In this document: positions 7,048 to 29,948 of the stretch, in pieces
Position numbering within the stretch: position 1 is the stretch's first letter
Layout of the letters: each line of letters opens with the position of its first letter
Virus record (IMG/VR): IMGVR_UViG_2724679138_000004
Direction: 5' to 3' (one strand)
Origin: a virus
Lineage: Duplodnaviria; Heunggongvirae; Uroviricota; Caudoviricetes
Length of the DNA: 36,866 bases
Made by a program: the position numbers and the translations under genes
Notes under the pieces: generated by a model
What the model saw: the letters and a program-made list of their open reading frames with translations, nothing else
Told to the model about the DNA's origin: nothing
The model's database searches: none

Positions 7048-8226
7048 TTAATTGCTGTTAACCGAAGTGACCAGATTTGCCAGGTATTTATCGGTAATAC
7101 GCTGGCGCAGGGTCAGGTTTTCGAGAGGAGGCACCGGGGTATAGTCATAGTCGATATACAGTTTTCCGGCCTTGAGGGTTTCCGCATCGTTGGATTCTTC
7201 GCTGAACCAGCAGGTCGCATCCACGATATAGCCGTTTGTTTTCAGCTCACGGAATTTGGCATTGATGCCGTCAACGATGTCGCGAATCAGCGTTGCGGTG
7301 ATGGGCTTGTCCACCGCCCACATGTGCGCCTCAGCCATCGTGTCGGCCAGCACCTGCGCGGTGCGGGTGTAGTTTTCAAAGAGGAACAGCGGGTCATCAG
7401 AGCAGGTACGGTTACCCCAGAATCGGAAACCGTCGCGGCGAATCAGCGTAGTGACACCTGCCTCGTTCAGCAGGTCAGCATCGGTGCCGGACTCCTGCAA
7501 ATCCCAGAATACAGATGCGCTGATGCCGGTAACACCGTTCACCCCGACGTTGGACAGCGTTTTATGCCAGCCCTGATCCTGGTCGATTTTAGCACGCAGA
7601 CCCAGCGCACGGGCGGTGGCGGTGGTACTGGTGACCGTATCCCATGCGAGGAAATCCGGCCAGATGACCATCAGCTCACGCTGGCTGAAATTCTGGCGGT
7701 AGGCTTTCACCTCGGAAATGGTTTTACAGCCCCATGCGCTGATATACCCGAAAGCGCGCAGCTTCTGACAGACTGATGCCAGTGCAACAGCCACCTCTTT
7801 GGTGTCCAGTCCCGGCACACCGAGAATACGCGGTTTAACACCGGTTACCGACTCTGCCGCCAGCAGGGCTTTCAGTCCGGTGTACTGACCGTTTTCGTCG
7901 GTGGTGCCGATGATATTGGAAACGGTCTGCGCAAGTTTCGTTTCTTCGTCTTCGCCGGTGCCGTCTTCCACACGTACAACAACGGTGACCGGTTTTGACT
8001 GGTCAGCGATGGCCTGCAACGACGCCGCCAGCGTGCCTTTTTTACCGGCCTTTGCAATTGCGCTCTGCACATTGGTAATCAGCACCGGTTTATTGAGGGG
8101 AAAGGTTTCCGCATCCGCATCGCTGGCCGTGCAGACCATGCCGACAATGGCAGTGGATACGGTGGAAATGACGCGGGTGCCGTCGTTAATCTCCAGCACC
8201 TGCACGCCGTGATGATAGTCACTCAT
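7048..8226 (-). CDS. FI: Contractile tail sheath protein FI
   Basis: 392 aa; P2 gpFI-like sequence and position upstream of FII. Confidence 0.92.
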   Translation of the reverse strand: MSDYHHGVQVLEINDGTRVISTVSTAIVGMVCTASDADAETFPLNKPVLITNVQSAIAKAGKKGTLAASLQAIADQSKPVTVVVRVEDGTGEDEETKLAQTVSNIIGTTDENGQYTGLKALLAAESVTGVKPRILGVPGLDTKEVAVALASVCQKLRAFGYISAWGCKTISEVKAYRQNFSQRELMVIWPDFLAWDTVTSTTATARALGLRAKIDQDQGWHKTLSNVGVNGVTGISASVFWDLQESGTDADLLNEAGVTTLIRRDGFRFWGNRTCSDDPLFLFENYTRTAQVLADTMAEAHMWAVDKPITATLIRDIVDGINAKFRELKTNGYIVDATCWFSEESNDAETLKAGKLYIDYDYTPVPPLENLTLRQRITDKYLANLVTSVNSN

Positions 8227-8322
8227 CCGTTTAACTCCGTGGTTAATGGGTGCAACTATTTTCTGTTGTGCAGAGCATGAGACGCTATTTGACCTGGCTG
8301 GTCAGGGGATGAAACAACAGAT

Positions 8323-8349
8323 AAAGAAAAGGCGGGCAATTCACCCGCC
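8323..8349 (-). terminator. Rho-independent terminator (minus strand) between the cargo module and FI
   Basis: GGCGGG/CCCGCC stem with 7-nt loop; on the minus strand followed by TTTTCTTT. Confidence 0.5.
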
Positions 8350-8751
8350 AGTCGTGATTTGTACTCACTCATTTTCCGACTGACAATTTACTTAGCCCAA
8401 AAGCTATCAAATCTGACAGTCTGCTTTGAGCGATGAGCGGACGTTAATTTGGGGTTGTACGCCAGAACCGCAGAAATTTCCGTGACGCATAATGTTTGCG
8501 GTTGTCTGCCTGTACGTAAGACCGCCGTCAACCGGACAGTAAAGAAATGGCCGTTTGGAACGAAAAATCACTGACCGCAGCGTCTCACATAGCTGGTACG
8601 GATAAATTCTCACTCACGGCACCATAAACGTACACGTCAGCACATGCCAAACATGCTTCAAAATTCGACTAATTCACTGCGCCAGAAATTTCTGGCGGTT
8701 CCGGTACAGCCCCCCTATATTATGCGAATTGTTAATTAACACTGATCAGCA

Positions 8752-9810
8752 TTATTTTTCCTGTGTATCATCATTCAAATCCGGTGCAGTCCGAAGTACA
8801 TTCGTGAAGTTAAGAAGCATTTTTTTTGTGCCAAAAGTGAACATCTCAGAGATTTCAGATGAAATGCTATCCCAAATAAAAATGATATGCCTCAAATACT
8901 CAACAACTCCAGGCCGGTTCAATGTACCTTCGATAAGATAATGTTCAGGAATACCCTCCATTATTCCAGTCTTTCTTATCCAGAAAAGTCCAACCCTGTT
9001 GGCCGATTCACCACCTGCAAGCACATAACTACGACGTTGATCTGTGTTTGGAATAGAAAGTATTTCAAAAATTAAAGGCACGATCATTTCAAGCCTTACG
9101 AATGGCCTAGGATGTGTACCAACTGGTTCTGTTTGAACCTCATAAAGTTTTTCGCCTTGAAAACGATGTAACATTAATGATATACCACATGTCAAAAAGC
9201 AAATTGCCAATTCGCAATCTTCATTAATGGCAAGTTGTCGAACAATTTCTATTACACACATGTATGTGGAAAAATAATCGGCTGCAAGTTCCGTTGCGTG
9301 CCAAATGGCAGATGCATCGTCATTGTCTGATGATAAATTATTTAAGTGAATTTCAGACATTACATTAATTTCGGAACTATACCTGTTCCTTATAAATAAA
9401 TGGCCCTGAGTTAAGTGTCCTAACTCATGAAAAAAAACCCATGTCAAACCTGCTAGAAAAATGTTTTTAGTGAAATTAGTTTTATCCCACTCATTTCTTA
9501 AAGTGGTAAAGTTGGTTTGCCCATTAAACCACATATCATAAACTTCATCATCTTTACCAGAGTGAACATAATCTACAAAAGCAGCAGCATCATCATATAA
9601 TGATCGGATTAATTTATATGTGATTGATATAGCATGCCTTGGTGGTTCATCACGCTCTGAGTAAACTAAAGCTCTAGCGTTCACAATATCTGTAGTTTCA
9701 AATTGTAAAGCGAGACTGCCATTAATTTCTTTATAGTAATGTTCATTCAAATCTTCTGTAATAGAAGACAAAACACTTGTAGCCCAGTTGTATAGCGCGA
9801 TACTTTCCAT
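8752..9810 (-). CDS. Hypothetical protein with zincin-like HExxH motif (FFHELGHLTQGH); candidate defence cargo in the FI-G (Z/fun) hotspot
   Basis: 352-aa ORF, visibly AT-rich relative to flanking tail genes; HELGH encoded at 9415-9429; acidic residues downstream (HATELAAD) could supply the third zinc ligand. No family assignment possible without search. Confidence 0.75.
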   Translation of the reverse strand: MESIALYNWATSVLSSITEDLNEHYYKEINGSLALQFETTDIVNARALVYSERDEPPRHAISITYKLIRSLYDDAAAFVDYVHSGKDDEVYDMWFNGQTNFTTLRNEWDKTNFTKNIFLAGLTWVFFHELGHLTQGHLFIRNRYSSEINVMSEIHLNNLSSDNDDASAIWHATELAADYFSTYMCVIEIVRQLAINEDCELAICFLTCGISLMLHRFQGEKLYEVQTEPVGTHPRPFVRLEMIVPLIFEILSIPNTDQRRSYVLAGGESANRVGLFWIRKTGIMEGIPEHYLIEGTLNRPGVVEYLRHIIFIWDSISSEISEMFTFGTKKMLLNFTNVLRTAPDLNDDTQEK

Positions 9811-10094
9811 TTGACACCATTAGAAAATTTGTTATTTATTTCTATTTTTTGAAAAATCACTTTTTAAAAAGTGGTCATATGCATAACTGAAAGCTGCGTT
9901 GTCACTGTCAAAATCATTTTCCGTTATGGCTTCCCATCCCCTCAACCACTTGTGCCTAATGCGCCACTTATGGGGTCCGCTTGGAAAACGGAAAATATCC
10001 TACGTTAAGCCTGTTTTTTAAGCAAGCATGACAGGCAGCTTTGAGCGAGGAGCGAACATGTGGTTTTTCAATAGTAACACCCGCTCCTTCCATC

Positions 10095-10415
10095 CTACTG
10101 CGGAGTGCAATCTATAGATAAAATCGTTTTCCGTGACTTAGCTTCTGGAGGGGACATTTCCTCGCTTTCGCTGATATTGAAGCTCCATGCGCCAACGCCT
10201 TTGACTTTCGAAAACAACAATTCACCTTCATAGCCTAGATCGTCAGTGCCAGCGATTATGACCATCCCACTCAACGTTCTCTGGTATGCATTCTCAAAAA
10301 CACGCCCCTCATAATCAATAGTTGCCCGTTCTTTGTCGAAGACAACCGCTTTGTCGCCCTCACAACGCATTACTGACTTGGCTTGTGATACACAGGAAAA
10401 ACCCAGAAGGATCAA
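10095..10415 (-). CDS. Small hypothetical protein, possible Sec signal peptide (…LLILILLGFSCVSQA|KSV)
   Basis: 106-aa ORF with TTG start in the track; no in-frame ATG upstream, so the true start and the signal-peptide reading are uncertain. Confidence 0.4.
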   Translation of the reverse strand: MILLGFSCVSQAKSVMRCEGDKAVVFDKERATIDYEGRVFENAYQRTLSGMVIIAGTDDLGYEGELLFSKVKGVGAWSFNISESEEMSPPEAKSRKTILSIDCTPQ

Positions 10416-10481
10416 TATCAGCAGTCTTTTAATTATTTATCTTCTACATACATAATTAAGGAGTGAAGTGGTCAACAAAAA

Positions 10482-10520
10482 CTGGCCGCATTATAAGATA
10501 TGTTTCAAGAACCACAAACG
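10482..10520 (-). promoter_or_regulatory. Candidate sigma70 promoter for the cargo genes (perfect -10 TATAAT on the minus strand at plus 10490-10495; weak -35 TTTGTG)
   Basis: Hexamers read by eye in the G-cargo intergenic region; 17-nt spacer. Confidence 0.3.
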
Positions 10521-10604
10521 TCAGCTTTTGGCACAGAGCGGACTGTCAGATTAGGCTTTACTCTGTTCTATAGGTATGTAAGCTCACACCAGAGTTCATA
10601 CAAC

Positions 10605-11132
10605 TTATTGCGGCATTTCCGGCCATTCAGGATTTGCAGGAACCACACGACTGACCAGAACACTGTAGCGTTCCCATGCCTCCAGTCGACTGCGCTCCTC
10701 ATCTGTTGCCATATTCAGCCTGACAGCGCGCTCCAGCGGCAAAATCACGGATTCAGCATCTGCTAGAAGTCTGGCTTTCCGATTTTCTGCCTGCTGCTGC
10801 AATTCCTCTGCCGTATAAATGCGTTTAATCACTGTGCCATCCTTAAACATCCAGTTCCCTGAAATGTCCGCCCGTCGGTTAGCAGTAATATCCGCCACTT
10901 CAACAACACTTAATCCATCCGGTCTGATAGCTGTCACATCCTTTTCCACATAGCGGATGATATTATCTTTGTCGTACGCTATTTTTATCGTGTCATCAGC
11001 AAAATACTTTTGTTCTTCGTACCAGTTCTTACCATCTTCTGAAAAAAACCAGACAACATCAAAGTCCTTTGTCAATTGATATTGTTCAACCGTTTTTGGA
11101 TTACCCGCCGTAATATTTTTTAAATGCTGCAT
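10605..11132 (-). CDS. G: Tail fibre assembly chaperone G
   Basis: 175 aa as in P2 gpG, directly downstream of H; N-terminal half is AT-richer than the backbone, typical of host-range cassettes. Confidence 0.88.
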
Positions 11133-11135
11133 AAA

Positions 11136-13385
11136 TTATACCTGCGCCACGTTATACCATGTCCCGTTAATGTATTTCTGCACCGGTCTGTAATATACGC
11201 CACCAATGTTATCGGCAGAGTTTGAGCCGGTATCCTGAACAATAATGCCGGTATATACGCAACCTGACGGAGCCTGATGCGTCCATGTAGTACCATTATT
11301 TGCTGGTTTATATGTAGATGCACCGCCCAGCCGCATGTCTCTCACATAACGTGAATCTGACTCAGCTTTGGTGTATGCACCAACATCTCCCGCTGAGGGT
11401 TTATGAGCAGTTGTATATAGTTGCGCCCATCCAGACCAGTTAGCATCTGTGGTATCTCGTCGGGAGCGAATATATGCCGGAGCATGAGCACCGCTGGTTC
11501 CACTCCAGCCAATAAGTAACTCACCCTCTCCTACAGCGGTTACGCCAGTGAGATGAAGCACATTACCATAGGCTGTTGGGTAGCCATTGTTGTATGCCTC
11601 ATACATCTGAATACCTGGTGTCCCCTTTACGCTCCCACCTAATGCAGTAACACGGTTTCTGGATACCAGTGTATTAATATTTATATCGGCAGAGCCATCA
11701 AATCTGACACCATTAATATTTCTTGCGTTCGCTAACTTAGTTGCTGTTGCAGCATTTCCTGAAAGGCTGGAAATAAATGGATGTGAACAGTAATAACCAC
11801 GTCCATTTTTAAAATCCAGAATAGCCTGTACGTTCGTGCTTTCTGTAGCGGGATTAGTTGCCCCCCACTTATATGTCGTCTGACCGACGACATAATCCTC
11901 TGTCGGAACAATAACCGTTAGCCCTTCCTCTGCAAGAATTTGTACTGGGAAAGCTCTGGCTTCAACATAAAAAACACTACATACATCATCATCTTTCAGG
12001 CTTGTAACAATGGAATGGATTGAACGCTCATTAGTCTGATACGTCCAGAAATAACCTGCCGCATATGAACCACGATCGGTCCAGCCTCCGGGCATAACCA
12101 TGCCATTAAACTCGCAGTTATTCATTACATAATCGCCGTTATAACAACCAGTTGAAATAACGACGCGGGATGCCATTTCTCCTGAAAGGCTGGCAGCACG
12201 GCGAAAGATAACGGGATACCACTTCCCGGCAACGACATTTGCAGGGGCTGCAAACGAATACTTTCGCATTCCCTTTTTCTTATCCACTTCACCTTTGCTG
12301 TAAACATTAATGTTACTCAGGAAGCGTCCTTTATCAGGAATATCCGCACCGTTCTGATCTTTCTGAAGACGTTTTTCAGCATTGTCATAGGCAGACTTCA
12401 CCGCTTTTGGTGTTGCAGCCAGCGTTTCAGAATCACTGTTGGTGGCGCTACTGAGCTGGACAAGACCTTTTCGCGCTGTGGTGGCATCCTGTGCAGTGTA
12501 TTTCCCGTTAGCAAGGTCATACGCTGTCTTAACCGCCTTTGGCGTTGCCGCAAGCGTTTCAGAATCGCTGTTGGTGGCGCTACTGAGCTGGACAAGGCCT
12601 TTTCGCGCGGTGGTGGCGTCCTGTGCAGTGTATTTCCCGTTAGCAAGGTCATATGCTGCTTTTACCGCTTTTGGTGTTGCGGCGAGCGTTTCAGACGTGC
12701 TGTTGGTGGCACTACTGAGCTGGACAAGGCCTTTTCGCGCTGTGGTGGCGTCCTGTGCAGTGTATTTCCCGTTAGCAAGGTCATATGCTGCTTTTACCGC
12801 TTTTGGTGTTGCGGCGAGTGTTTCAGACGTGCTGTTGGTCGCACTGCTTAACTGAGTAAAACCTTTGGCGGTCAGCGAGGCGTCCGGGTGACGTCGTGAC
12901 TGTTCATGTTCTGCAATTTTGTCATCAACGTAATCCTGCGTTGCCATCACCGTTGTGGTGTCAATGGTCAGCGCCACTGAGGCCACACTGCTGACGATGA
13001 TGACCATGCGGCAGGTCTGCGAACGCCCTGAGCCTTCGGCAAGAGCTGGCTTATAACTTTCAGCCATGTTCGCCACGGCAATTAACGTTCCAGCATCATC
13101 GTACAGGCCAAGCTCACGCATCCAGAAACCGCCCACCTCCGGCGGAATAACCAGCTCTGCGATAATATAATTACTGTTTCGTTTGTCCTGGCTGATTTTG
13201 TTCAGCGCATGTCGCCAGACTTCGTGGATAAGCCCGGTCTGTCCGGCATCCGGGACAGGCAATTTACCACCGCCATCCCCGACGGCCATCGTGGTAATGT
13301 TGACCTTCCGCCCTCCCGGCGCGGTTGCCGCTGCCAGCTTTGCTGCACCGGCAGTGGTGATAACGGTTTTAAATTTCGTGCTCAT
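11136..13385 (-). CDS. H: Tail fibre protein H with four tandem 44-aa repeats
   Basis: 749 aa; N-terminus matches P2 gpH (MSTKFKTVITTAGAAKLAAA...); central repeats ...LSSATNSTSETLAATPKAVKAAYD...; divergent C-terminal receptor-binding part. Confidence 0.9.
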   Translation of the reverse strand: MSTKFKTVITTAGAAKLAAATAPGGRKVNITTMAVGDGGGKLPVPDAGQTGLIHEVWRHALNKISQDKRNSNYIIAELVIPPEVGGFWMRELGLYDDAGTLIAVANMAESYKPALAEGSGRSQTCRMVIIVSSVASVALTIDTTTVMATQDYVDDKIAEHEQSRRHPDASLTAKGFTQLSSATNSTSETLAATPKAVKAAYDLANGKYTAQDATTARKGLVQLSSATNSTSETLAATPKAVKAAYDLANGKYTAQDATTARKGLVQLSSATNSDSETLAATPKAVKTAYDLANGKYTAQDATTARKGLVQLSSATNSDSETLAATPKAVKSAYDNAEKRLQKDQNGADIPDKGRFLSNINVYSKGEVDKKKGMRKYSFAAPANVVAGKWYPVIFRRAASLSGEMASRVVISTGCYNGDYVMNNCEFNGMVMPGGWTDRGSYAAGYFWTYQTNERSIHSIVTSLKDDDVCSVFYVEARAFPVQILAEEGLTVIVPTEDYVVGQTTYKWGATNPATESTNVQAILDFKNGRGYYCSHPFISSLSGNAATATKLANARNINGVRFDGSADININTLVSRNRVTALGGSVKGTPGIQMYEAYNNGYPTAYGNVLHLTGVTAVGEGELLIGWSGTSGAHAPAYIRSRRDTTDANWSGWAQLYTTAHKPSAGDVGAYTKAESDSRYVRDMRLGGASTYKPANNGTTWTHQAPSGCVYTGIIVQDTGSNSADNIGGVYYRPVQKYINGTWYNVAQV
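12380..12875. repeat. About four tandem copies of a 132-bp coding repeat inside H (phage tail-fibre repeat)
   Basis: Near-identical 132-nt units visible in the DNA; the antisense ORF 12439-12855 is repetitive for the same reason. Confidence 0.85.
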
Positions 13386-25959: not shown

Positions 25960-26667
25960 CTATATATACTTCCTTTTCACTCTACTTAATTCTATCACTG
26001 ATGAGGAGTGACAAAATGACAAATTAATAGTATCGATATAATCCAAAATTTGACTCTCAACCTCAATAAAAATATTTTTGGGCCCATTACTAATCGATAT
26101 ACCGATTTCATCCAAAACAGCCATCATTTTTCTCTGATGAGTTTTATATTTATAGTCTTTATTTTCCTCTGTAATATGCGCATTGGCTTCCTCAATAACG
26201 CATTTGATTCTAGATATTATTTCTAGATAATCTCTCGAAACAGATATATCACCGCCTTGCGCTTCAGGGAACATAACCCTATACCATCTAAAAAAATTAA
26301 CTTTCTCTGGATAGATGCTACTTCTTTTAGTTAACTCAGCACTTGCAAATTCTCTAAACATCGTCAGATGACTAGTGTAATTACTATTATTATTATTTTT
26401 AACTCCAGCGTTATATGTCATCAAAGCAATCATAACACCAAAAACGGTAACAAAAGTTGTTATAAGCCATCCAAACGCCTGAAAATACATTACTATACCA
26501 GATGTTTTTTCCGCAAAAAATTTTAAGCACTGGCTATCGAAGCATATATCACGCTCATATAGCTTTTCATTCTGAATAGTTTCAAAAAGAGAAATTAGCG
26601 AAAAAATCAAAAAAAGAGCTGACGACACACCGACAATATATTTGAGAAGTCTAATATTTGCATTCAT
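25960..26667 (-). CDS. Two-transmembrane-helix protein, putative effector partner of the upstream reverse transcriptase
   Basis: 235 aa, strongly AT-rich; hydrophobic helices near aa 8-28 and 58-85; start ATG overlaps the RT stop (ATGA), indicating translational coupling. Confidence 0.8.
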   Translation of the reverse strand: MNANIRLLKYIVGVSSALFLIFSLISLFETIQNEKLYERDICFDSQCLKFFAEKTSGIVMYFQAFGWLITTFVTVFGVMIALMTYNAGVKNNNNSNYTSHLTMFREFASAELTKRSSIYPEKVNFFRWYRVMFPEAQGGDISVSRDYLEIISRIKCVIEEANAHITEENKDYKYKTHQRKMMAVLDEIGISISNGPKNIFIEVESQILDYIDTINLSFCHSSSVIELSRVKRKYI

Positions 26668-27938
26668 AATGGTTTTAAAGATGCCAATCTAGATTTAAAA
26701 CACTCCAGTTTTTCTTTAAATGATTCAGAGCGAGTAAGAATAATCATCTTATATCTCGTCAAATCATATTTTCTTTTATACCAATGTTTATTTTGATTAC
26801 CTTTCGAATACGACAACTCTAAACTTTTTATAGCTGCATCAATCACAGCAACATCTCTTTTAGATGGCATCGGTTTTATTGCCTGCAACTGTTTCTTGAA
26901 TGATTCATATTTTTCATGCCCAACACGGCCAAGCTTATTCACTCTCCCCATACATCTATTGAATTCTTTTCTGTATGCAACACTTGTTTTTGTGTTATTT
27001 TTTGCCGCCAGTAATTTCAAATTATGTATAGATGCCCTGATTCTTTTGACTTCATCGGATGGTAGTCGAGGTGAGTCATAGTCAACTCTTAAACCATGTA
27101 CTTTTATAGGTTCAGATGAACAGTGAAATATTTTAGTTTTGTGCTTATTTATCGGCAAGTCATGCTCAGAAAGCATCCTCTCTATATGGCTTTGCATTTG
27201 AGAAAAATCATAATTACTTATTTTAGATGACACGGTAATATCATCTACCAAACGCGTATAAACAAGTCCTTTCCTCTGCGCACGTCTTACCACATCCCCT
27301 TCAACAGCGAATAAACACAAAGTTGCTATATAGCTTGATGTTAAGGCCCCCTGTACGACAAAATCATCCTTAGTACATATATCCACCAAGTATTCAAGAG
27401 CCTCATCCTTAATATGCAATATCTCCTCAAACACGCTCCTAACCAGATCTCTATGGATATTATCGAAAAAATTACTTATATCCACCTTGAGAACTGTTTT
27501 TGCTCCACAATGAGCCTTTGCACATGAAACATAGTCACGTTTGACATTAGAATTTAAAACATCATTTTTACTGGGAACTGAACCAAACAAAAATGAAGGA
27601 AAAACAACCAATTCCTTAAAGATACGTTTATTAATTCTACTCTGTAATAATCTCATTTTAGGATGCAGGGAGTAGACAATCCGTTTGCTTCCGTCAATTT
27701 TGGGAATTTCTTTTAGAGTATATTTCTCATCTAATGGTAATTCTGCAATAGCTTTAAGCTCTTCAACAGAAATCGATAAAGCCTTTGACAACTTTTCAAG
27801 TGTTGTGATAGGAGCATTGGATTTGCTGTATGGTTTAAATTTATCCATAAACATACCATTCAAATTCAAAGTTACGTACGGTCTTCCCATACTCAAGGGT
27901 GGAACAGCAGAGATGCTTACATCAACAATTGTCAGCAA
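26664..27938 (-). CDS. Retron-type reverse transcriptase (candidate); start codon uncertain
   Basis: RT motifs in order: LKVDISNFFDNI, QGALTSSYIATLCL, YTRLVDDITVSS (catalytic xDD at about 27239-27248), LPINKHKTKIF, VHGL; ORF in track starts at TTG 27938, alternative ATG starts at 27890, 27854, 27848. Confidence 0.8.
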   Translation of the reverse strand: MLTIVDVSISAVPPLSMGRPYVTLNLNGMFMDKFKPYSKSNAPITTLEKLSKALSISVEELKAIAELPLDEKYTLKEIPKIDGSKRIVYSLHPKMRLLQSRINKRIFKELVVFPSFLFGSVPSKNDVLNSNVKRDYVSCAKAHCGAKTVLKVDISNFFDNIHRDLVRSVFEEILHIKDEALEYLVDICTKDDFVVQGALTSSYIATLCLFAVEGDVVRRAQRKGLVYTRLVDDITVSSKISNYDFSQMQSHIERMLSEHDLPINKHKTKIFHCSSEPIKVHGLRVDYDSPRLPSDEVKRIRASIHNLKLLAAKNNTKTSVAYRKEFNRCMGRVNKLGRVGHEKYESFKKQLQAIKPMPSKRDVAVIDAAIKSLELSYSKGNQNKHWYKRKYDLTRYKMIILTRSESFKEKLECFKSRLASLKPL

Positions 27939-28198: not shown

Positions 28199-28404
28199 CG
28201 CCCGCTTCATGGGGCGGTTTTAATGCAGTTGCATGACCACTCAACTAGCGCGCCAGTCCTGATGTCGCCAGGCAGTTATTGTTCTCTGACTTGCATGCGC
28301 TTCGATGCAGAGTAATGCACTTCCTGAATTGCTCGCATTCGCATCGTTATCATGATAGAAAACAGGTAGTTATTTGTGCGCAACTTAAGAAGAAATCACT
28401 AATT

Positions 28405-29948
28405 ATGAAAAAGATTTATGAATTAACTACTGGTAGAGCGCTTAAGTATTTTCTGCAGCATGATTCATACACTACTCTGGAGCTACCCAGTTATGTCGAT
28501 TTTTCTTCCTTGCTTGAAGAAATCAACTCCGCGATAGATGAAGGTAAAATCAACTTCCAACCTGACTCCAAGTCATTGATGGGGAAGAATATAAATTACG
28601 AGGTTTTAGTCAGCAAAGATGGCTTATATAGCTGGCGACGAATAACACTAATTAATCCTCTGTACTACGTGTATTTTTGTAAACTTATTACATCCCCTTC
28701 CAACTGGAAGGCTATAAGGAATAAATTTAGAGAGTTTGAGTCTAATGATCTTTTTTATGCTCAAGTACCCCAGTGAGCAAAAAGAACACCTCAAACGTAG
28801 CTGCATCTGTTTTAAACTGGTGGGAAGATTTTGAACAAAAAAGTCTTTCATTGGCTCTTGAGTATGAGTTCATGTTCAGCACAGATATTTCAAACTTCTA
28901 CCCTTCTATTTACACTCATAGCTTTGAATGGGTATTCATCTCAAAAGAAGAGGCCAAAAAGAAAGAAAATAACAATAACCCAGGACGATTGATTGACACT
29001 CATATCCAGATGATGATGAGTAATCAGACAAACGGAATACCATTGGGTAGTACGTTGATGGATACATTTGCCGAATTAATTTTAGGCGAAATTGATTTAC
29101 AGCTAAGAAAAAAAACTGAAGAGCAAAAAATAACGGATTACAAAGTAGTTCGCTACAGAGATGATTATCGAATATTTTCAAGCAGTAAAGATGATTTGGA
29201 CAAAATCTCAAAGTGTTTGGTTGAGGTCTTAGGTGAGTTTGGGCTTGATTTAAACTCAAGAAAAACAGAACTACATGACGACATCATTCTTCACTCCCTT
29301 AAATCAGCAAAAAAAGAATATATTATAGAAAGGTCGTTCAACTCCCTACAGAAAATGTTGTATGCAATATATTTATTTTCTTTAAAACATCAAAACTCCA
29401 AAATTACAGTTAGATATTTAAATGATTTCTTGCGAAAATTATTTAGGAAGAAAAAGATCACAAATAGTGGGCATCAACTAGATGCAATGCTTGGAATTAT
29501 TTCAAGCATCATGGCTAAAAACCCAACCACCTACCCAGTGGGAATGGCTATTTTCGCAAAACTCTTGACCTTCCTTTATGACGACGATGAACTCAAATTT
29601 GGCAAGTTACAACAACTTCATTGTAAACTAGGTAAACAACCAAATACTGAAATGTTAGATATTTGGTTTCAACGAGTTCAAGGGAAGATACACACACAAT
29701 GGGAAGGCGATTACAAAACAGCCCTATGTCAACGCATAAATGATGAACTCAAGGAAAAAAAAACATTTACCATTGATGGCCTGTGGGATGTAGAGTGGAT
29801 TCCGGGTTCAGCCAAAAATAAAAACAAACAGAAAATACTATCAATTTTGAAAAAAACAAAAATTGTGGATTTAGATGCATTCGAAGAAATGGATAATGAT
29901 ATTACACCAGAAGAAGTGAACTTATTCGACAAGGAACACAGCGCTTAA
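28405..29948 (+). CDS. Abi/UG-type reverse transcriptase split by a -1 frame change at a T6 run (segments 28405-28776 and 28773-29948); possible pseudogene or programmed frameshift
   Basis: Segment 1 carries RT motif 1-like RRITLINPLYYVYFCKL; segment 2 carries FMFSTDISNFYPSI, NGIPLGSTLMDTFAEL, VVRYRDDY (YRDD at 29154-29165) and FGLDLNSRKTEL; frame 0 opens at 28749 and the T6 run is 28751-28756. Confidence 0.75.

Follow-up and report, generated by a model that had tools for sequence, protein, structure and literature searches.

A probable Lit-like zinc metalloprotease gene in the Z/fun slot of a P2-like prophage

Z/fun is one of two variable loci of P2-like phages, and the genes found there include anti-phage genes (PMC9122126; PMC13586616). 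The virus record IMGVR_UViG_2724679138_000004, whose 36,866 nucleotides are the window analyzed here, is a P2-like prophage with its late genes on the minus strand, in which the order tail fibre gene H, tail-fibre assembly gene G, a small open reading frame (ORF), an ORF of 352 codons and tail sheath gene FI raises the question of what the slot between G and FI carries and what this cargo might do. An earlier note, made from the sequence alone, had drawn attention to the larger ORF as an AT-rich gene with a HELGH motif followed by HATELAAD, a description that we can confirm (Table 1; G+C content of 36%, compared with 50% in the window and 56% in FI), and had considered that no family could be assigned to it from sequence. 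Profile-profile alignment does assign one: the 352-residue protein is very likely a distant homologue of Lit (Peptidase U49), and this Lit-like family is not one of the structural or morphogenesis families that P2-like phages conserve.

In all three libraries that hold such a model, PADLOC (E 1.4e-5), NCBIfam and Pfam, the best match of the protein was Lit/Peptidase U49, always below threshold. The weakness of these single-sequence matches is explained by the result for a smaller profile of 13 sequences, which, compared with the K-12 Lit sequence alone, reached just 61.5% probability over 35 columns. When a clade alignment of 49 sequences, reaching down to 22% identity, was compared by hhalign with an alignment of 23 canonical Lit sequences seeded with the K-12 Lit from e14, the two profiles aligned with 96.5% probability (E 7.6e-10, 141 columns), pairing residues 73-246 with Lit residues 105-245 and bringing three motifs into register. 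Twelve columns are invariant in the 49 sequences (A45, H128, E129, H132, Q135, H137, E174, A177, D178, H233, P234 and R239), and the invariant residues of the Lit family are H160, E161, H164, H169, E181, A184, D185, P233 and R238, with H232 nearly so; the pattern common to both families is, in order, HExxHxxxxH, ExxAD and HPxxxxR. As H128, E129 and H132 are unchanged in all 49 homologues, the HExxH is not a chance motif. A search of PHROGs returned just a weak match to a family of unknown function and a profile search of the PDB sequences returned nothing; sequence matches to HEPN_LA2681, SspB and M48 were weak and, like that in PHROGs, taken as noise.

Structure prediction points in the same direction. 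The AlphaFold2 model of the 352-residue protein has a predicted local distance difference test value (pLDDT) of 85.7 and a predicted template modelling score (pTM) of 0.90, and the control model of Lit has values of 88.4 and 0.90, so that both are confident. Both models run through the same succession of elements, opening with an N-terminal helix and three strands that end at residue 64 and continuing with a long helix, the helix with HExxH, the helix carrying the glutamate, a further helix, the HP-R helix and C-terminal helices; relative to the Lit model, that of the 352-residue protein has a low-confidence insertion (approximately residues 143-163) and a longer C-terminal helical part. In a comparison with 48,164 chains the nearest solved folds were the same for both models: BepA, 3c37, Ste24 and ZMPSTE24 of family M48, PepO and neprilysin of M13, BlaR1 and CapP (values for the 352-residue model: CapP 6.8, BlaR1 6.2, ArdC 6.1, thermolysin 5.7). 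Foldseek against the PDB gave nothing at E<=0.001 and no global match. Judged by the order of elements and by the nearest folds, the protein and Lit may well have the same fold. In the model of the 352-residue protein, a zincin fold, HELGH lies in one helix and E174 in the next long helix, which is the gluzincin arrangement, with E174 as the presumed third zinc ligand. The M48/M56 gluzincins (BepA, HtpX, Ste24/ZMPSTE24, BlaR1) and the M13 enzymes (neprilysin, PepO) are only 10-18% identical to the protein and are membrane-bound, periplasmic or secreted, whereas the 352-residue protein, which has no signal peptide and no membrane helix (highest 19-residue Kyte-Doolittle window 1.48), is predicted to be soluble and cytoplasmic. 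CapP, which is associated with the cyclic oligonucleotide-based antiphage signaling system (CBASS), acts together with its partner CapH and a CBASS operon, whereas our gene has no partner gene.

The curated cut-offs of the Pfam and NCBIfam Lit models are not reached, and the protein therefore falls into a separate clade. By its sequence it is a member of a sister clade to Lit of approximately 145 clusters at 50% identity: a word-indexed search had recovered 13 clusters, and an exhaustive phmmer search of 1.84 billion representatives recovered 145 at E<=1e-3, 36 of them below 1e-30. One match from this last search, P0092, is a 425-residue protein with Resolvase and Recombinase domains whose residues 309-404 match residues 58-153 of the Lit-like protein, and it is either a gene-calling fusion or a real one. 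A Lit-family label already existed in one RefSeq record, WP_021541094.1 of strain 2c3 ('phage exclusion protein Lit family protein'); what is added here is the placement in a divergent sister clade, which the curated family models miss and whose members are carried singly by phages, satellites and plasmids. At 90% identity or more, copies are found in Escherichia, Klebsiella, Enterobacter and Citrobacter, all labelled 'hypothetical protein'.

The position of the gene is that of Z/fun cargo, as had been supposed: the insert lies between G and FI, enclosed by conserved inverted repeats, and only a minority of P2-like phages carry it. With the 2378-bp region between the two genes as query, 1302 of 5426 complete E. 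coli genomes matched parts of it, the best-ranked records at its two ends (approximately 11-13% of the query), and just nine of the 5426 contained the whole insert, which was not found in any sequenced phage in GenBank. Other prophages fill the slot differently, for instance with an HNH endonuclease or with an acetyltransferase and a helix-turn-helix protein. Among 120 P2-like viral contigs retrieved via the boundary motif described below, 71 had both G and FI, with a gap between the two of 1.08 to 7.6 kb in which neither the 352-residue protein nor the small ORF was encoded. The intrinsic terminator noticed between the insert and FI is a hairpin with a T-run (8349-8331) on the minus strand, and since the DNA around it is 94-96% identical to P2 and Wphi, it belongs to the P2 backbone.

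In every context that we read, the Lit-like gene is a lone gene, carried by a mobile element or surrounded by genes of such elements. One relative directly follows the tail-fibre assembly gene of an unrelated myovirus-type prophage, another lies beside the KAP NTPase and gop-beta-cII genes of a P4-like element, and a third sits at a prophage end behind an IS3 element. On contigs of plasmids or integrative and conjugative elements, relatives are found with ArdC, Hha, H-NS and KfrA, with TrwB, TrwC and Mrr, or between two Fic genes. In E. coli CU42ET-1 the cassette is 97% identical, lies beside IS66 and a DUF3800 gene and comes without the small ORF. In strain 167 it is part of a CP4-type island that also contains DUF4365 and YiiX-like genes and adjoins setC and yicL, a site that we take to be the selC locus. 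A conserved downstream partner was considered and rejected, as the two closest plasmid homologues are followed by ORFs of 94 and 95 codons that have no relationship with one another. A 2026 survey of P2/P4 defence repertoires found Lit to be mostly plasmid-borne; the only homologue that it reports from a P2-like prophage (PMC13586616) may or may not be the present gene.

Taken as a whole, the locus is best explained by a soluble cytoplasmic zinc metalloprotease that is a distant full-length homologue of Lit and is carried as a single-gene cassette in the Z/fun slot, an explanation that we consider reasonably probable. The earlier proposal of single-gene cargo with an anti-phage role is still the best reading of its function in view of the homology to Lit and the location in a variable, defence-associated region. 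Lit is activated by the major capsid protein gp23 of phage T4 and cleaves the elongation factor EF-Tu (PMC13581612; bioRxiv 10.64898/2026.09.05.749240), and its gene is reported to be silenced by H-NS (bioRxiv 10.64898/2026.09.05.749240). The 'cell death peptidase' of the cryptic prophage e14 of E. coli K-12 (MEROPS U49, PF10463, NF007238), Lit is likewise single-gene prophage cargo; the two proteins have the three motifs, the predicted order of elements and the nearest solved folds in common, and both genes are AT-rich. They differ in that the identity over the aligned core is approximately 15%, that the 352-residue protein is longer than Lit (297 residues), with 23 residues inserted behind the HExxH helix and an extended helical region at the C-terminus, and that the conserved residues outside the motifs are not the same. 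The Lit trigger is the Gol peptide of T4 gp23, and the cut in EF-Tu falls between Gly59 and Ile60. By analogy with Lit we infer the anti-phage role, the latency and triggering, and the nature of trigger and target. On this analogy, the protease would be made at a low level in the lysogen and would be latent until, on superinfection, a phage protein, either by itself or in complex with a host factor, generates or exposes its substrate; it would then cleave some essential protein of the host, perhaps EF-Tu or another translation factor, whereupon protein synthesis would halt in the infected cell, multiplication of the phage would fail and sister lysogens would be protected. A role in abortive infection or defence appears fairly likely on these grounds, whereas EF-Tu as the target is conceivable but rather doubtful. 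To our knowledge, Lit is among the oldest known abortive-infection systems and just the e14 enzyme with its T4 trigger has been studied; the trigger of the present protein, and whether it cuts EF-Tu, would show whether suicide proteases of the Lit type form a broad and varied class of sensors or are an isolated case.

Several observations speak against this view. The scores at the curated models are low (NCBIfam NF007238: E 0.0018, 17.6 bits for a cut-off of 274; Pfam PF10463: E 0.035, 14.2 bits for a cut-off of 23.9), and PF10463 was matched at E<0.01 by 13 of the 49 clade members, the best at 1.2e-4 and none with a strong score, while ten more distant members did not match it at all. Similarity to Lit in sequence is limited to the core, with the N-terminal 72 and the C-terminal 105 residues unaligned and the inserted residues (151-173) lying between the first and second motifs, so that the recognition of partners may differ from that of Lit. 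The zincin fold by itself is silent on the substrate, and a literature search for the protein accessions found no paper mentioning them. The promoter scan listed nothing in the AT-rich region that travels with the protease gene (Table 1), nor is there a convincing sigma-70 promoter upstream of the gene, which speaks against taking its expression in the lysogen for granted. Finally, several homologues lie on plasmids near ArdC, Hha and H-NS, that is, near genes of anti-restriction and silencing, which would equally fit an anti-defence or establishment function.

The main rival follows from this last point: the protein could be an anti-defence or establishment protease that cuts a component of host immunity or restriction upon entry of the element, like the metalloprotease domain of ArdC. 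We regard this as unlikely, because the family closest in sequence is Lit, a host-killing defence protease, because ArdC ranked well below the M13, M48 and CapP matches in the fold comparison, and because the gene accompanies defence cargo in prophages and in the P4-like element; furthermore, the metalloprotease domain of ArdC is fused to a single-stranded-DNA-binding domain, whereas the 352-residue protein has neither such a domain nor any other fused to it. Still less probable, in our estimate, is some other cellular role, be it that of a regulatory protease cutting a repressor in the manner of ImmA/IrrE or that of a toxin against competing bacteria, even though the HExxH zincin fold is generic and cargo on mobile elements would be compatible with either.

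The earlier note had taken the second ORF of the insert together with the first as a pair and had read it as a protein of 106 residues with a possible signal peptide. The signal peptide holds and the length does not: the 106-residue form begins at a TTG (10415), whereas in strain 2c3 the gene is annotated with 112 codons from an ATG at the position equivalent to 10433, homologues in other loci likewise begin with methionine, and the 112-residue form in relatives opens with the signal peptide MKRLLILILLGFSCVSQA. In the window the start codon (10431-10433) reads ATT owing to a single base difference at 10431, as it does in EC93, PapRG-06-3 and EcWJ, which are 100% identical to the window here and of which the EC93 RefSeq record leaves the small gene unannotated. 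With an ATT start, translation of the small protein in the window strain is probably poor or absent, and the gene has probably been silenced in this lineage. The family consists of eight clusters, all at least 84% identical, without a Pfam domain; its members open with MK[RKI]LLIL..LLG[FY]S[CY][VL].QA, the cysteine of the signal peptide being tyrosine in one of them, and every member read retains the two cysteines of its mature part. The conserved signal peptide and mature-part cysteines indicate a small exported, probably periplasmic, product. Versions of 91 residues in the databases are gene-calling artefacts, as the upstream codons of the signal peptide are intact.

A promoter of their own had been proposed for the two genes on account of a TATAAT. 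The hexamer is present at 10495-10490, but such hexamers are no commoner in the window than expected by chance (12.4 expected, 10 counted), no acceptable -35 element accompanies it in the promoter scan, and of the two genes only the small ORF has it upstream. In other loci the small ORF is preceded by a stretch corresponding to 10462-10519 (79-83% conserved), which travels with it; the TATAAT thus belongs to the small ORF and is not evidence for a shared promoter. That the exported protein and the protease form a two-gene system is very improbable. In E. coli and Klebsiella genomes with copies at least 90% identical, the locus tags of the two genes are indeed adjacent, and the genes occur together in the island of strain 167, which is not a P2 prophage. 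Against this, the small ORF is absent from all seven contexts of deeper protease homologues (30-65% identity), CU42ET-1 is one of eight protease contexts in all without it, and in three contexts, namely Enterobacter kobei islets, other enterobacterial chromosomes and a lambdoid prophage, the small ORF is there but the protease gene is not. Between the two genes lie a boundary repeat and a Tn3-family end, their products are predicted for different compartments, periplasmic and cytoplasmic, and the small ORF has lost its ATG in the window while the protease ORF is intact. The adjacency, seen in many genomes with near-identical copies, reflects recent common descent, not a conserved partnership: the small ORF is an independent cassette and not the partner of the protease. 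For annotation, the Z/fun cargo can now be labelled, with the small ORF as an independent gene whose start codon is damaged in the window strain.

The boundaries of these cassettes are themselves informative. The bounds of the insert (8410-8445 and 10517-10552) correspond to the right and left inverted repeats of the Z regions of P2-EC67 (AJ512685) and P2-EC58 (AJ512683), which, like P2 Z/fun, have the slot and its flanking repeats as here and an unrelated cargo gene; the extent of the right repeat in Table 1 was obtained by mapping the AJ512685 annotation onto the window. At the inner end lies a hairpin motif of approximately 29 nucleotides (TGACAGTCYGCT-N9/10-RAGCGGAC), found in at least 120 P2-like viral contigs. 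The left hairpin is degenerate in the window and a perfect palindrome with a 12-bp stem in other P2-like phages. Apparent empty sites in two viral contigs, seen as overlapping matches to the motif on the plus and minus strands, were rejected; the sequence of one of the two, L059, shows a left repeat that is itself perfectly palindromic. Homology to CU42ET-1 spans one direct copy to the other (8427-10059) and homology to strain 167 the right copy to the left copy (8427-10543), and in both of these loci, neither of which is a P2 prophage, further copies separate further genes (positions 2488, 4092 and 4533 in island L011; 2488, 4103, 4631 and 7085 in island L027). Read on the coding strand, a cassette therefore ends at its 3' side with one hairpin copy, and the array starts with the palindromic copy. 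Such arrays, in which direct copies are followed by a closing copy that is inverted and palindromic, are integron-like in layout, with no recombinase identified. Site-specific exchange was reportedly proposed for the Z region by Nilsson et al. in 2004, and the cassettes may be exchanged either in this manner or by plain homologous recombination at the shared hairpins. A more far-reaching proposal, which we put forward only tentatively and hold to be less probable than not, joins these strands: the protease gene and the small ORF would be separate cassettes of a hairpin-delimited, integron-like system with arrays in the P2 Z/fun slot, the CP4-type selC island and the IS-flanked region of CU42ET-1, in which a hypothetical site-specific recombinase would shuttle defence genes between phages, islands and plasmids; the trigger of the Lit-like clade would, moreover, not be T4 Gol, nor would its target need to be EF-Tu.

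What is common on plasmids is not the hairpin arrays but the non-coding elements associated with the cassette. Immediately 3' of the protease gene lies an element of approximately 275 bp that folds into a single long imperfect hairpin, and copies of it at 80-90% identity occur on 404 plasmids, mostly conjugative, and in 527 of the 5426 E. coli genomes including BL21(DE3), mostly unannotated. Four aligned copies share inverted GGGG...CCCC ends and diverge outside them. A search of Rfam over 8100-10700 at E<=1 returned nothing, and two identities were tried for the element and discarded: an F-type Frpo/ssi leading-region element, as there is no similarity anywhere in the F leading region, and a Tn3-type miniature element, which the inverted GGGG ends would fit, although the expected 5-bp duplication of the target was not observed. 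Upstream of the protease gene, a solo terminal inverted repeat of 38 bp matches the end of a truncated Tn3-family transposase gene at 98%, and the approximately 90 nucleotides around it are found on 3127 plasmids. Together, the Tn3 repeat and the 275-bp element suggest that the Lit-like cassette came from a plasmid. That the protease gene is an inert relic without current function is scarcely credible, for although the insert is rare, lacks a clear promoter and has decaying neighbours (the ATT start of the small ORF, the split AbiP2 gene listed in Table 1 and the stump of a transposon end), its reading frame is intact, the twelve invariant residues, among them all those of the catalytic motifs, are kept in homologues as distant as 22% identity, and near-identical copies have spread over four genera.

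Table 1. Positions of the features discussed, in window coordinates
Feature	Position	Strand	Evidence or remark
Lit-like zinc metalloprotease gene (probable), 352 residues	8752-9810	minus	ORF; Lit models; profile comparison; AlphaFold2
HELGH (H128, E129, H132), start of HExxHxxxxH	9415-9429	minus	with H137, aligns with Lit H160/E161/H164/H169; helix 110-134
HATELAAD, ExxAD motif (E174, A177, D178)	9277-9300	minus	aligns with Lit E181/A184/D185; helix 164-193
THPRPFVR, HPxxxxR motif (H233, P234, R239)	9094-9117	minus	aligns with Lit H232/P233/R238
AT-rich upstream region travelling with the protease gene	9811-9961	minus	94.7% identical in the CU42ET-1 cassette, outside any P2
Small secreted-protein gene (putative), 112 residues in relatives	10095-10433	minus	ATT replaces ATG start in window; separate cassette
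TATAAT hexamer	10490-10495	minus	57 nucleotides upstream of the small ORF start position
Intrinsic terminator upstream of FI	8321-8349	minus	hairpin, 8-pair stem with 6 G-C pairs, T-run
Boundary hairpin repeat	8414-8442	plus	inner end of the Z-region 'right inverted repeat' (8352-8442)
Internal copy of the boundary repeat	10029-10057	plus	between the two genes; 86% identical and direct to 8414-8442; none expected by chance
Left boundary hairpin	10517-10552		just downstream of G; inverted partner of 8410-8445
Palindromic non-coding element, approximately 275 bp	8443-8728		immediately 3' of the protease gene
Solo 38-bp Tn3-family terminal inverted repeat (GGGGTCCGCTTGGAAAACGGAAAATATCCTACGTTAAG)	9972-10009	plus	upstream of the Lit-like gene
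Tail fibre gene H	11136-13385		ORF list
Tail-fibre assembly gene G	10605-11132		Caudo_TAP E 1.4e-32
Tail sheath gene FI	7048-8226		sheath domains E 4e-33; 56% GC
Retron reverse transcriptase	26664-27938	minus	PADLOC RT_IV E 7.6e-177
Retron effector, two-transmembrane (2TM)	25960-26667	minus	E 4e-85
AbiP2-type reverse-transcriptase gene, apparently split over two overlapping ORFs	28279-28776; 28773-29948		profile positions 4-118; 127-487
AT-rich ORF of 261 residues	15895-16680	opposite to the minus-strand phage genes around it	34% GC

Two differences concern the tail sheath gene. FI of the window is 12 nucleotides (four codons, in frame) shorter than that of strain 2c3, and in EC93, otherwise identical over the insert region, FI is annotated as a pseudogene on account of a 1-nucleotide frameshift, so that in this gene the window departs from the EC93 sequence. 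Adjacent to the portal gene, the second P2 hotspot holds a type IV retron (25960-27938) and an AbiP2-type gene, whose division into two ORFs is probably a frameshift or the mark of a pseudogene; with these two systems, the accessory slots of the prophage are filled with defence genes. The 261-residue ORF had no match in PADLOC and in Pfam just a sub-threshold one to DUF6535 (19.8 bits, cut-off 23.9). It occupies what we take to be the position of orf30 in P2, and its site may be a third accessory slot.

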